A stretch of DNA of 64,000 bases. It comes from Escherichia coli. GTDB lineage: Bacteria; Pseudomonadota; Gammaproteobacteria; Enterobacterales; Enterobacteriaceae. Within the stretch, counting starts at the first letter, position 1. Each line of letters begins with the position of its first letter. The stretch is taken from the NCBI RefSeq assembly GCF_030013595.1, contig NZ_CP122768.1, one strand, 5' to 3'. A program made the position numbers and the translations under genes. The notes below the pieces were generated by a model. That model had not been told where the DNA came from. It ran no database searches and was given only the letters and a program-made list of their open reading frames with translations. Below are positions 1,617-25,472 of the stretch, in pieces.

Positions 1617-1863
1617 AATCTCGCGCTAACAACCTGGAATCGAGCCGTCATACTACGGCGCAACGCCCTATAAAGTAAACGATGACCCTTCGGGAACTTC
1701 AGGGTAAAATGACTATCAAAATGTGAATTGTAGCTGACCTGGGACCTGTACCCGGGTCGGTATTTTTTTGCTTCTGGTCCCGGTGAGGAGTTATGCCGGG
1801 CAGGCCGAACAGCCGGGGTGGGTGAAGACTTGCCCCATCAGGAATATTCAAGAGGTATAACAA

Positions 1864-12289: not shown

Positions 12290-12366
<77 letters not shown>

Positions 12367-12487
12367 CTTTCCCTTAGAGTCCTTTTTCAAATATACTGTG
12401 AAGACTTCGGCCTTCGTAGTGGGATTTGAAAAAATCCTTCTGGAAAGTGCTCCAGACCGCAGTTGCGGTTATAGGGTTCAGTTATAT

Positions 12488-12515
12488 AAAGCCCCGATTT
12501 ATCGGGGTTTTTTGT
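12488..12515 (+). terminator. Partial terminator between metY and rimP
   Basis: aaagccccgatttatcggggtttttt. Confidence 0.55.
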
Positions 12516-12572
12516 TATCTGACTACAGAATAACTGGGCTTTAGGCCCTTTTTTTATGTCTTGGGGGTGGGC

Positions 12573-13025
12573 TTGTCCACATTAGAGCAAAAATTAACAG
12601 AGATGATTACTGCGCCAGTTGAGGCCCTGGGTTTTGAACTGGTTGGCATCGAATTTATTCGCGGTCGCACATCCACACTGCGCATCTATATTGATAGTGA
12701 AGATGGCATCAATGTTGATGATTGTGCTGATGTGAGCCACCAGGTAAGTGCTGTGCTGGATGTTGAAGATCCCATCACCGTTGCTTATAACCTGGAAGTC
12801 TCCTCACCGGGTCTCGATCGCCCACTGTTCACGGCTGAACACTACGCCCGTTTCGTCGGAGAAGAGGTGACTCTGGTTCTCCGCATGGCGGTACAAAACC
12901 GTCGTAAATGGCAGGGCGTTATCAAAGCGGTAGACGGTGAAATGATCACAGTTACCGTCGAAGGTAAAGATGAAGTGTTCGCGCTGAGTAATATCCAGAA
13001 GGCGAACCTGGTTCCCCACTTTTAA
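12573..13025 (+). CDS. rimP: Ribosome maturation factor RimP
   Basis: Start placed at the TTG giving (M)[11 protein letters not shown] (150 aa); first gene of the nusA-infB operon. Confidence 0.88.
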
Positions 13026-17249: not shown

Positions 17250-17330
17250 TCCATGCGGGATAAGGCGTTTACGCCGCATCCGGCATGGATTGCCTGATGC
17301 GACGCTGGCGCGTCTTATCAGGCCAACGTG
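17250..17330. repeat. REP/BIME-type palindromic units between infB and rbfA
   Basis: gcgggataaggcgtttacgccgcatccggca ... tgcctgatgcgacgctggcgcgtcttatcaggcc; characteristic GCCGGATG/CTTATCAGGCC REP signature. Confidence 0.5.
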
Positions 17331-17400
17331 AACAGCCCTTCCACCTGAAATTAATTTTAAAAAGGGGCTAACAGCCCCTTTTTTGTCAGGAGAATTTATT

Positions 17401-18798: not shown

Positions 18799-19164
<366 letters not shown>

Positions 19165-19180: not shown

Positions 19181-19208
19181 AAAAGGGGGCCTGAGTGGCC
19201 CCTTTTTT
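19181..19208 (+). terminator. rpsO terminator
   Basis: aaaagggggcc-tgagt-ggcccctttttt. Confidence 0.65.
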
Positions 19209-19211
19209 CAA

Positions 19212-19410
19212 GCTGACGGCAGCAATTCACTGGAAACTAATGTATTGTTGCTATGAATGATCTTCCGTTGCAGAGGTTCGCGCGGCTAATGAGAGGCTTT
19301 ACCCACATTGGGCTGGGTTAGGGTTGTCATTAGTCGCGAGGATGCGCAGAAGATCGGGTATTAACACCAGTGCCGTAAGGTACTGTCTAAGAAAGAGAAA
19401 GGATATTACA
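19212..19410 (+). promoter_or_regulatory. pnp promoter and 5' leader (autoregulatory, RNase III-processed region expected here)
   Basis: 199-nt untranslated region between the rpsO terminator and the pnp start; the function is from established knowledge of the rpsO-pnp locus, the processing site itself was not mapped. Confidence 0.4.
19215..19390 (-). ncRNA. sraG: Possible SraG/PsrO-type antisense sRNA opposite the pnp leader
   Basis: Location only; an sRNA divergent from pnp is described at this locus in K-12, but I could not verify its sequence or ends. Confidence 0.25.
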
Positions 19411-22645: not shown

Positions 22646-22726
22646 ATGAAAATTGCTGATCAATTTCATGATGAGTTATGTAGACTGGCCGCCATTAATT
22701 TTGAGGCACACGTACTACATGGCTGA
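22646..22726 (+). CDS. yrbN: 26-codon small ORF in the deaD leader, overlapping the deaD start (YrbN-like)
   Basis: atg aaa att gct gat ... cat ggc tga = [26 protein letters not shown]; matches my recollection of the 26-aa K-12 small protein YrbN; below the ORF-track length cutoff. Confidence 0.45.
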
Positions 22727-24608
22727 ATTCGAAACCACTTTTGCAGATCTGGGCCTGAAGGCTCCTATCCTTGAAGCCCTTAACGATCTGGGTTACGAAA
22801 AACCATCTCCAATTCAGGCAGAGTGTATTCCACATCTGCTGAATGGCCGCGACGTCCTGGGTATGGCCCAGACGGGGAGCGGAAAAACTGCAGCATTCTC
22901 TTTACCTCTGCTGCAGAATCTTGATCCTGAGCTGAAAGCACCACAGATTCTGGTGTTGGCACCGACCCGCGAACTGGCGGTACAGGTTGCTGAGGCAATG
23001 ACGGATTTCTCTAAACACATGCGCGGCGTAAACGTGGTTGCCCTGTACGGCGGCCAGCGTTATGACGTGCAATTACGCGCCCTGCGTCAGGGGCCGCAGA
23101 TCGTTGTCGGTACTCCGGGCCGTCTGCTGGATCACCTGAAACGTGGCACTCTGGACCTTTCTAAACTGAGCGGTCTGGTTCTGGATGAAGCTGACGAAAT
23201 GCTGCGCATGGGCTTCATCGAAGACGTTGAAACTATTATGGCGCAGATCCCGGAAGGTCATCAGACCGCTCTGTTCTCTGCAACCATGCCGGAAGCGATT
23301 CGTCGCATAACCCGCCGCTTTATGAAAGAGCCGCAGGAAGTGCGCATTCAGTCCAGCGTGACTACCCGTCCTGACATCAGCCAGAGCTACTGGACCGTCT
23401 GGGGTATGCGTAAAAACGAAGCACTGGTACGTTTCCTGGAAGCGGAAGATTTTGATGCGGCGATTATCTTCGTTCGTACCAAAAACGCGACTCTGGAAGT
23501 GGCTGAAGCTCTTGAGCGTAACGGCTACAACAGCGCCGCGCTGAACGGTGACATGAACCAGGCGCTGCGTGAACAGACTCTGGAACGCCTGAAAGACGGT
23601 CGTCTGGACATCCTGATTGCGACCGACGTTGCGGCCCGTGGCCTGGACGTTGAGCGTATCAGCCTGGTGGTTAACTACGATATCCCGATGGATTCTGAGT
23701 CTTACGTTCACCGTATCGGTCGTACCGGTCGTGCGGGTCGTGCTGGCCGCGCGCTGCTGTTCGTTGAGAACCGCGAGCGTCGTCTGCTGCGCAACATTGA
23801 ACGTACTATGAAGCTGACTATTCCGGAAGTAGAACTGCCGAACGCAGAACTGCTGGGCAAACGCCGTCTGGAAAAATTCGCCGCTAAAGTACAGCAGCAG
23901 CTGGAAAGCAGCGATCTGGATCAATACCGCGCACTGCTGAGCAAAATTCAGCCGACGGCAGAAGGTGAAGAGCTGGATCTCGAAACTCTGGCCGCCGCAC
24001 TGCTGAAAATGGCACAGGGTGAACGTACTCTGATTGTTCCGCCAGATGCGCCGATGCGTCCGAAACGTGAATTCCGTGACCGTGATGACCGTGGTCCGCG
24101 CGATCGTAACGACCGTGGCCCGCGTGGTGACCGTGAAGATCGTCCGCGTCGTGAACGTCGTGATGTTGGCGATATGCAGCTGTACCGCATTGAAGTGGGC
24201 CGCGATGATGGTGTTGAAGTTCGTCATATCGTTGGCGCGATTGCTAACGAAGGTGACATCAGCAGCCGTTACATCGGTAACATCAAGCTGTTTGCTTCTC
24301 ACTCCACCATCGAACTGCCGAAAGGTATGCCGGGTGAAGTACTGCAACACTTTACGCGCACTCGCATTCTCAACAAGCCGATGAACATGCAGTTACTGGG
24401 CGATGCACAGCCGCATACTGGCGGTGAGCGTCGTGGCGGTGGTCGTGGTTTCAGTGGCGAACGTCGTGAAGGCGGTCGTAACTTCAGCGGTGAACGCCGT
24501 GAAGGTGGTCGTGGTGATGGTCGTCGTTTTAGCGGCGAACGTCGTGAAGGCCGCGCTCCGCGTCGTGATGACTCTACCGGTCGTCGTCGTTTCGGTGGTG
24601 ATGCGTAA
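22719..24608 (+). CDS. deaD: Cold-shock DEAD-box RNA helicase DeaD (CsdA)
   Basis: Start placed at [13 protein letters not shown] (629 aa); motifs [28 protein letters not shown] repeats in the C-terminal tail. Confidence 0.93.
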
Positions 24609-24651
24609 TCATCGCTGAACAGCGAACACAATCTGTAAAATAATATATACA

Positions 24652-24681
24652 GCCCCGATTTTTACCATCGGGGCTTTTTTG
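24652..24681 (+). terminator. deaD terminator
   Basis: agccccgat-ttttacc-atcggggctttttt. Confidence 0.6.
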
Positions 24682-24685
24682 TGCA

Positions 24686-25392
24686 CAGAAAACCCCCAGC
24701 TAGGCTGGGGGTTCCGGAAAGCTTTCAGCTTTGAGCCAGTTATTAAAACCCCTTTTGATTTGTTAAAACACCTTGCGGTCTGGCAACTGCAAGTGTCAAA
24801 CAAGAAATCAAAAGGGGGTCCCAATGGGGGACGAAAAGAGCTTAGCGCACACCCGCTGGAACTGTAAATATCACATAGTTTTTGCGCCGAAATACCGAAG
24901 ACTGGCGTTTTACGGAGAGAAGCGTAGGGCGATAGGCAGTATTTTGAGAAAGCTGTGTGAGTGGAAAAGCGTACGGATTCTGGAAGCAGAGTGCTGCGCA
25001 GATCATATCCATATGCTTGTGGAAATCCCACCCAAAATGAGCGTATCCGGCTTTATGGGATATCTGAAAGGGAAAAGCAGTCTGATGCTTTACGAGCAGT
25101 TTGGGGATTTGAAATTCAAATACAGAAACAGGGAGTTCTGGTGCCGAGGGTACTATGTCGATACGGTGGGTAAGAACACGGCGAAGATACAGGACTACAT
25201 AAAGCACCAGCTTGAAGAGGATAAAATGGGGGAGCAGTTATCGATTCCATATCCGGGCAGCCCGTTTACGGGCCGTAAGTAACGAAGTTGAATGCAAATG
25301 TCAGATCGTATGCGCCTGTTAGGGCGCGGCTGGTAACAGAGCCTTACAGGCGCATTTGAAAAACCTCCGGCTATGCCGGAGGATATTTATTC
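24686..25392 (+). mobile_element. IS200 insertion sequence (IS200/IS605 family), about 0.7 kb, boundaries approximate
   Basis: Contains an intact 152-aa TnpA nearly identical to my recollection of Salmonella IS200 TnpA; a perfect hairpin ccccagc-tag-gctgggg (24694-24712) and a second stem ccccttttgatt...aatcaaaagggg that would sequester the tnpA RBS are the IS200 left-end hallmarks; no terminal inverted repeats, as expected for this family. Confidence 0.8.
24824..25282 (+). CDS. tnpA: IS200 transposase TnpA (HUH Y1 single-strand transposase)
   Basis: MGDEKSLAHTRWNCKYHIVFAPKYRR...HIHMLVEIPP...: HxH (HUH) motif and catalytic Tyr region; 152 aa. Confidence 0.9.
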   Translation: MGDEKSLAHTRWNCKYHIVFAPKYRRLAFYGEKRRAIGSILRKLCEWKSVRILEAECCADHIHMLVEIPPKMSVSGFMGYLKGKSSLMLYEQFGDLKFKYRNREFWCRGYYVDTVGKNTAKIQDYIKHQLEEDKMGEQLSIPYPGSPFTGRK

Positions 25393-25400
25393 CTGTCTTT

Positions 25401-25423
25401 TGTACTCATGTACTGGTACAGTG
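25401..25423 (+). promoter_or_regulatory. TrpR-operator-like element at the mtr promoter
   Basis: tGTACTcatGTACTGGTACAGtg; repeated GTAC half-sites resemble the CTAG/GTAC-based TrpR operator, about 50-70 bp upstream of the mtr ATG; mtr is a known TrpR/TyrR target. Confidence 0.4.
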
Positions 25424-25472
25424 CAATGCATAACAACGCAGTCGCACTATTTTTCACTGGAGAGAAGCCCTC

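Follow-up and report, generated by a model that had tools for sequence, protein, structure and literature searches.

Look-alike terminator hairpins in the metY-rimP leader and downstream of deaD in Escherichia coli

The two hairpins and their surroundings

The 64,000-nucleotide stretch of Escherichia coli DNA analysed here, referred to as the window, carries the gene order argG (negative strand), metY, rimP, nusA, infB, rbfA, truB, rpsO, pnp, nlpI, deaD, IS200 and mtr (Table 1). Two hairpins of similar sequence are located 12 kb apart on the same strand, at opposite ends of a co-transcribed cluster of cold-shock and ribosome-biogenesis genes: site 1 in the leader between metY and rimP, and site 2 downstream of deaD. 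Of 5,426 E. coli genomes, 5,421 contain the metY region, many with 100% identity. Five further Rfam matches, from the greA leader to RNase P RNA, are all expected for this region of E. coli.

Table 1. Positions of genes, RNA elements and hairpins in the window.
Feature	Position	Strand	Basis or remark
greA leader	1647-1768		Rfam, above threshold
metY, initiator tRNA-Met (CAT), upstream of site 1	12290..12366	+	ARAGORN; Rfam tRNA
Gammaproteobacterial rimP leader RF01770, two-hairpin attenuator containing site 1	12455..12555	+	Rfam; PMC2965389
Conserved GGGUU, candidate antiterminator	12474..12478	+	fold of 12452-12500
Site 1, terminator t1 of the metY-rimP leader, aaaGCCCCGATTTATCGGGGttttttgt	12488..12515	+	fold, T-run, orthologues
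Terminator t2 of the rimP leader, GGGCU..GGCCC + U7	12536..12555	+	fold; immediately ahead of the rimP ribosome-binding site
rimP ORF, first gene of rimP-nusA-infB	12561..13025	+	ORF list; annotation of identical E. coli DNA
naRNA4	17254-17324		Rfam, above threshold
S15 leader	18837-18951		Rfam, above threshold
SraG	19181-19352	-	Rfam, above threshold
deaD, DEAD-box RNA helicase	22719..24608	+	ORF list; annotation; homologues
Site 2, predicted deaD intrinsic terminator	24650..24680	+	fold, T-run; present in IS-free K-12; orthologues
IS200 (IS200C-type) insertion, ~711 bp	24681..25391	+	empty-site alignment with K-12; IS200C transposase annotated in FDAARGOS_448; RF01405
IS200 left-end hairpin, CCCCCAGC-uag-GCUGGGGG	24690..24713	+	sequence; PMC4513863
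IS200 tnpA, 152 codons	24824..25282	+	ORF list; annotation of homologous copy
mtr, tryptophan permease, downstream of site 2, now set apart by IS200	25473..26717	+	ORF list; annotation
RNase P RNA	57620-57995		Rfam, above threshold

Both hairpins resemble canonical E. coli Rho-independent terminators: their stems are GC-rich and 8-10 pairs long, their loops measure 4-7 nt, the U-run counts six or more and the folding energy is about -15 kcal/mol. The hairpin caller assigns them 9-10 pairs, with 5-6 GC pairs. The stem of site 1 spans 12489/12490-12509/12511 around the 4-nt loop UUUA and is followed by a T-run of six to seven that extends to 12513. It folds with -15.0 kcal/mol (z = -4.6), a value equalled by 0 of 200 shuffles, and is terminator-like according to the caller. 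The hairpin lies on the positive strand, 122 nt past metY and 46 nt ahead of rimP. It differs from canonical intrinsic terminators in being a 5'-leader attenuator rather than an operon's end.

Site 1 is already known as t1 of the rimP leader, an attenuator that is both curated as RF01770 and published. The window matches RF01770 with 102 bits against a gathering score of 47, over model positions 1-102 of 102, and the element sits directly upstream of rimP-nusA-infB. Naville and Gautheret (PMC2965389) described a ubiquitous rimP-leader terminator with a conserved GGGc..gCCC stem, ahead of which several Gammaproteobacteria have another terminator, of the inverse motif CCCg..cGGG, together with a potential antiterminator; they also remarked that t1 and t2 are each other's inverse. 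The GGGc..gCCC motif corresponds to t2 of the window and the upstream CCCg..cGGG hairpin to site 1, for which no difference from the published leader was found. Brandi et al. (2019; PMC6511841) include t1 and t2, located upstream of rimP, in their list of the operon's terminators.

A conserved GGGUU lies upstream of the site 1 stem and, in the fold of the region, can pair with AGCCC (12490-12494) of the 5' arm. This pairing can form before the 3' arm has been transcribed, making GGGUU a candidate antiterminator, a function we infer. Csp antitermination at the metY-rpsO terminators was reportedly described by Bae and colleagues in 2000.

Orthologues of site 1 were collected with a relaxed motif, GCCCCGATN{2,10}ATCGGGGYTTTT, searched in one genome per species and yielding at least 120 loci. 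The matches listed do not include the E. coli representative genome and serve here for orthologues and convergence, not for counts per genome. Among the matches listed, 12 lie between an upstream tRNA-fMet and a downstream rimP and are thus true orthologues. They belong to Citrobacter, Enterobacter, Superficieibacter, Klebsiella sp., four genomes of Aeromonas and one gammaproteobacterial MAG, reaching a depth at which RimP is 62-66% identical (Aeromonas and the MAG). All 12 retain AGCCCCGAT..ATCGGGG[TC]TTTTTGTTAT[CG]TG and the upstream AGGGT, the latter being invariant in 13/13 orthologues, Aeromonas included. RF01770 scores are 99 bits in Citrobacter and Klebsiella sp. and 58 bits in Aeromonas and the gammaproteobacterial MAG. 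Stem, loop and tail of site 1 are invariant in eight enteric species, as is the spacer within enterics, and stem and tail are retained in Aeromonas. The sequence-level constraint on the metY-rimP leader is unusually strong for a terminator region. The leader (12367-12560) is conserved far past its two hairpins, in AGGGT, the TGTTAT tail, CTGGGCT..GCCCTTTTTTT and a GG.GG ribosome-binding site, and the TGTTAT[CG]TG form of the tail is conserved out to Aeromonas.

Site 2 is the string caGCCCCGATTTTTACCATCGGGGCttttttgt (24650-24682), which begins 42 nt past the deaD stop codon on the positive strand. Its stem pairs 24651-24659 with 24667-24675 around the 7-nt loop UUUUACC and is followed by a T-run at 24675-24680, which is T6 in the window and T7 at the IS-free K-12 site. 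The hairpin folds with -15.6 kcal/mol (z = -4.0; 0/200 shuffles as good) and is again terminator-like according to the caller. Position and stem of the deaD-mtr hairpin are retained in K-12, E. albertii, Salmonella, two Citrobacter and an Enterobacter MAG, while the loops (TTTTACC, TCTAACA, CGTCACA, CTCAACA, CTTAACA and ATTTATT) differ in 7/7 orthologues. The stem itself is GCCCCGGT..ATCGGGGT in Enterobacter sp. Ag1 and is closed by a G.U pair in E. albertii. A search with DeaD homologues, which returned almost only E. coli and Salmonella, added one Salmonella locus. The rpsO and pnp-nlpI terminators of the same species likewise retain the stem with a drifting loop, and the stem of t3, before rbfA, has been rebuilt between the species compared. 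Site 2 thus evolves like the rpsO and pnp-nlpI terminators, pointing to ordinary structural constraint.

With the rimP leader, site 2 has the stem sequence alone in common. It lacks the second hairpin, the conserved flanks, the rimP context, the conserved GGGUU and the TGTTATCTG tail, and its fold includes no upstream element able to sequester the 5' arm. Searched against RF01770 in 201 nt, site 2 reaches 18.8 bits (E = 0.63), below the gathering score and level with about 29 other terminator-bearing families, for a total of some 30 equally weak matches. A literature search found no report on termination at the deaD terminator. Site 2 is predicted, from structure, T-tract, position and orthologues, to be an ordinary end-of-gene terminator.

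The earlier note on this DNA had called the hairpins the terminators of metY-rimP and of deaD, a reading with which structure, T-tract, position and orthologues agree at both sites, and RF01770, PMC6511841 and PMC2965389 also at site 1. It placed site 1 at exactly 12488-12515, as found here, and site 2 at 24652-24681, which is off by 2 and 1 nt.

The bases immediately following the site 2 T-run belong to a 711-bp IS200 element that is absent from K-12 and most E. coli. The insertion directly follows the deaD hairpin's T-run; without it, K-12 reads GGGGCTTTTTT|TCTGTC at the empty site. The element is like IS200 in length, in its left-end terminator hairpin, in its STnc490/art200 region (Rfam STnc490, RF01405, matches at 24691-24814) and in its tnpA. 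Ellis et al. (2015; PMC4513863) place the IS200 left-end hairpin at nt 12-34 of the element, where it serves as the element's own terminator against incoming transcription, and from this position IS200 nt 1 is 24681. An IS at this place between deaD and mtr is present in 16/5,426 complete E. coli genomes with a best match of 97% identity, suggesting that the insertion is old or independent. The possibility that the deaD hairpin is itself part of IS200 was rejected, as both IS-free K-12 and other genera have the hairpin.

Likeness of the hairpins and frequency of the stem

Common to both sites are AGCCCCGAT, ATCGGGG and T6, amounting to 8-9 bp of identical stem, and within E. coli the two share an 11-nt identical run, AGCCCCGATTT. 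They differ in the loop, which is UUUA (4 nt) in site 1 and UUUUACC (7 nt) in site 2, and in the closing pair, which is G.U in site 1 and G-C in site 2. A strict pattern, GCCCCGAT..ATCGGGGC, matches site 2 only, missing site 1 because of its G.U closing pair and very short loop. Part of the remaining resemblance is secondary. Both the TTT by which the match continues into the loop and the ATATA upstream are confined to E. coli, being absent from the Salmonella, Citrobacter, E. albertii and Enterobacter orthologues. The GT after the site 2 T-tract ('ttttttgt') is not chromosomal; it represents IS200 nt 1-2, as the K-12 empty site and the 711-bp insertion in the alignment indicate. IS200 is no part of the hairpin pair and contributes only this GT, which makes the tails look alike. 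The description of the two as near-identical hairpins therefore stands for the stem and T6, and falls short in that the loops and closing pair differ and the GT comes from IS200. The string ancestrally common to both sites is, as judged from the orthologues, about 9 nt, AGCCCCGAT.

Further copies were sought by a direct count over 664 kb, comprising the window and 600 kb from elsewhere on the chromosome of K-12. Hairpins of the type CCCCGA..TCGGGG are limited to sites 1 and 2 in the window and number 0 in the 600 kb of K-12. The octamer GCCCCGAT is not enriched, occurring 4 times in the window against 2.3 expected and 15 times on both strands of the 600 kb against about 18 expected (1.2e6/4^8). 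Flanks of 60 nt on each side align no better than shuffles (P = 0.53 and 0.86), with anchored identities of 17/60 and 15/60.

BLAST of the short hairpins (28 Gb), which detects only matches of at least about 19 nt and is blind to stem-only copies with other loops, revealed no additional near-identical copies of either hairpin in 5,426 complete E. coli genomes. The 56-nt query for site 2 matches one place per genome in 5,425 genomes. The 47-nt query for site 1 matches a median of two places per genome, the extra place inspected being the rpmG terminator, which lies upstream of mutM and matches over 19 nt (GGGGTTTTTTGTTATCTG). This terminator, cctcGCCCCGGCGGGGTTTTTTGTTATCTGc, in the rpmG-mutM intergenic region, shares the 19-nt run with site 1, where the run covers the 3' half and the tail (12504-12522). 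CCCCGCttcgGCGGGGTTTTTTGTTTTCTG is the terminator that follows the argX-hisR-leuT-proM tRNA cluster. The sequence past the T-run, GTT[AT]TCTG, might act on termination as downstream DNA. Neither mobility nor presence-absence polymorphism was seen, as both sites occupy a fixed locus in at least 5,421/5,426 E. coli and are also found in other genera. In Citrobacter werkmanii and one Enterobacter MAG, only the two orthologous sites are present among the motif matches listed.

Families in which many terminators of one genome derive from a single inverted oligomer are known, including the inverted DUS/USS terminators of Neisseria and Haemophilus and the REP/BIME elements of enterobacteria. Here, in contrast to these, there are two copies and not hundreds, the octamer is not enriched and the 600 kb of K-12 holds no further hairpins. 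The earlier note had suggested a small dispersed repeat family, to be refuted if just two copies with unrelated flanks existed; this is what was found within the 664 kb and by BLAST of the 5,426 genomes, and the suggestion does not hold.

The stem recurs widely outside E. coli. A random-sequence estimate for the relaxed motif at that size is about 10 loci, against at least 120 listed. Of 120 matches listed, 12 are the rimP leaders and 4 are deaD-mtr orthologues, leaving about 104 at unrelated loci of Bacteroidota, Vibrio, Pseudomonas, Shewanella, Clostridia, Planctomycetes, cyanobacteria and others; each of these loci has A-tract/T-tract flanks of the terminator type. Even the exact 22-mer core of site 1, GCCCCGATTTATCGGGG[CT]TTTT, is found in Thiomicrorhabdus, Methylophaga, Bacteroidales, Zhongshania, Melioribacter, Chitinophaga, Vibrio and a Methylococcales MAG, at loci with unrelated flanks and no RimP coding sequence nearby. 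A stem of the AGCCCCGAT type is evidently a frequent solution for a strong terminator.

Pair statistics were computed for 148 distinct terminator-like hairpins in the window and the 600 kb of K-12 (19 of them in the window), giving 10,866 pairs; a stricter terminator caller, which returned 41 sites, was relaxed for these counts. Sites 1 and 2 are the most similar non-paralogous pair of the 10,866, with 8 nt in common in the arms and 11 nt if the loop and a 2-nt flank are counted too. One other unrelated pair (1/10,865) has a common 8-mer arm, the rho and rplI terminators of K-12, indicating that such coincidences do occur. These two terminators have the arm AAAACGCC and similar TTTTGCTTT tails. 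Four other pairs have 10-mers in common, and true paralogues, the rrn terminators, are far off at 14 and 17. Under a first-order Markov null fitted to real arms, an 8-mer has a per-pair probability of 1.5e-4, and the empirical frequency is about 1e-4. From these, about 0.005-0.03 pairs are expected in the window (9 strict or 19 relaxed terminators) and roughly 20-75 8-mer-arm pairs per genome, given 500-1,000 terminators. The match is unusual for a single window (about 2%) and expected in a whole-genome scan. The earlier claim that the likeness exceeds what two independent terminators would give is accordingly correct for one window and lost at whole-genome scale. The likeness is also inflated by the IS200 bases and the E. 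coli-specific loop bases.

Origin of the common stem

The most probable reading, to which we assign a probability of about 0.86, is that these are two independent Rho-independent terminators, each inherited vertically, whose same C-rich/G-rich stem arose by convergence or chance. Site 1 lies in a deeply conserved attenuator and site 2 appears to be an ordinary gene-end terminator, which argues that their likeness is of this kind. Strong terminators use a small pool of C-rich/G-rich stems, so that identical 8-9-mers are expected tens of times per genome, and they recur across phyla. The coincidence that the earlier note had offered as one option is borne out by the unrelated flanks, the lack of further copies in the sequences searched and the null frequencies. 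Against chance can be counted the low number of pairs expected in one window, the location of both sites on one strand at the ends of a single gene cluster, and that both stems have been called invariant across Escherichia, Salmonella and Citrobacter.

In this reading, t1 stops part of the transcripts from the metY promoters, and read-through past t1, possibly aided by GGGUU sequestering the 5' arm, enters rimP-nusA-infB. The deaD terminator may insulate the mtr promoter from deaD transcription. Termination in vivo at t1 and t2 is taken from the literature, and at the deaD terminator we infer it. Part of the extra similarity is secondary, in the IS200-derived GT and in a loop TTT that arose in E. 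coli only. The biological weight of the resemblance is small, site 1 being a known attenuator and site 2 a routine terminator, and the case serves chiefly for calibration. Bases contributed by a neighbouring mobile element such as IS200 can raise the likeness of two sites above its ancestral level.

It is highly improbable, in our view, that the deaD stem was copied or converted from the older t1, 12 kb away, in the ancestor of Escherichia, Salmonella, Citrobacter and Enterobacter. Site 1 is indeed the older of the two, being found in Aeromonas too while site 2 is documented only in the enteric clade, and the sites are close, on the same strand and matched with a window-level chance of about 0.02. 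No homology extends beyond the 9-bp arms, however, and the ancestral loops are unrelated (TTTA against 7-mers of the [CTA][TG]T[CAT]A[CT][AT] type); the same stem also arose independently at about 100 unrelated loci among the matches listed. An identity of 9 bp is far too short for homologous gene conversion. A 9-bp stem holds too little information to speak firmly against ancient copying.

We also regard as doubtful in the extreme that the AGCCCCGAU/AUCGGGG stem is under selection because one sequence-specific factor in termination or antitermination, such as NusA or a Csp-type chaperone, reads both sites, tuning entry into rimP-nusA-infB and exit from deaD together. The sites flank the cold-shock genes nusA, infB, rbfA, pnp and deaD. 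Such an arrangement, in the operon described in PMC6511841, would fit a common regulator, and PMC2965389 argued that the conserved stems of the rimP leader serve as motifs for protein recognition, NusA being the best candidate and likely regulator. The invariance of the site 1 stem, loop and tail over large distances is consistent with this, as is a site 2 stem that is invariant in six species with a drifting loop. The rpsO and pnp-nlpI terminators, however, also keep the stem and drift in the loop, a pattern explained by structural constraint only, and base changes in the site 2 stem are tolerated in Enterobacter sp. Ag1 and E. albertii. Site 2 moreover has neither GGGUU nor the tail nor a second hairpin and fails RF01770, and the stem is common among terminators of unrelated phyla. 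If true, a shared factor would offer a tangible way into protein recognition of the rimP-leader stem, which has long been proposed and is unproven.

That the hairpins are copies of a small dispersed repeat, mobile or spread by recombination like REP or uptake-sequence terminators, is effectively refuted: the 8-9 bp identical stem, the 11-nt run in E. coli and the first rank, paralogues aside, among 10,866 pairs speak for it, but no other copy exists in the window or the 600 kb of K-12, nor a near-identical one in the 5,426 E. coli genomes. The octamer shows no enrichment, and the flanks are unrelated, each site being fixed at its own locus with its own conserved flanks.

Other terminators of the cluster and IS200 insertion sites

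Other terminators in the cluster use the same G4C/GC4 blocks in the opposite arm order (17363-17379, 19186-19202 and 12536-12548). Stems of this opposite order include AGGGGCU/AGCCCCU in t3 before rbfA, GGGGCC/GGCCCC in the rpsO terminator and GGGCU/GGCCC in t2.

IS200 lies between the deaD terminator and the control region of mtr, which is conserved (TTGTACTCATGTACTGGTACAGTGCA, ~25400-25425) and which we take to be a TrpR/TyrR operator region. At the right junction of the element, position 25392 is C in the window and T in K-12 and FDAARGOS_448 (..ATATTTATT|C/T CTGTC), and T-runs at both ends of the IS leave the cleavage positions ambiguous by a few bases. The left end of IS200C (GTGCACAGAAAACCCCCAGC...) abuts a GC-rich hairpin and T-run at 4/4 independent sites inspected, with tnpA co-oriented with the terminated gene: downstream of deaD in the window, near hypT in O104:H4, in strain EC5654, and at plaP-sbcB in strain d1-7. 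This tendency is already known, a preprint (10.1101/2025.07.22.666184) having reported an over-representation of terminator-like sequences just upstream of ISs, most strongly for IS200/IS605.
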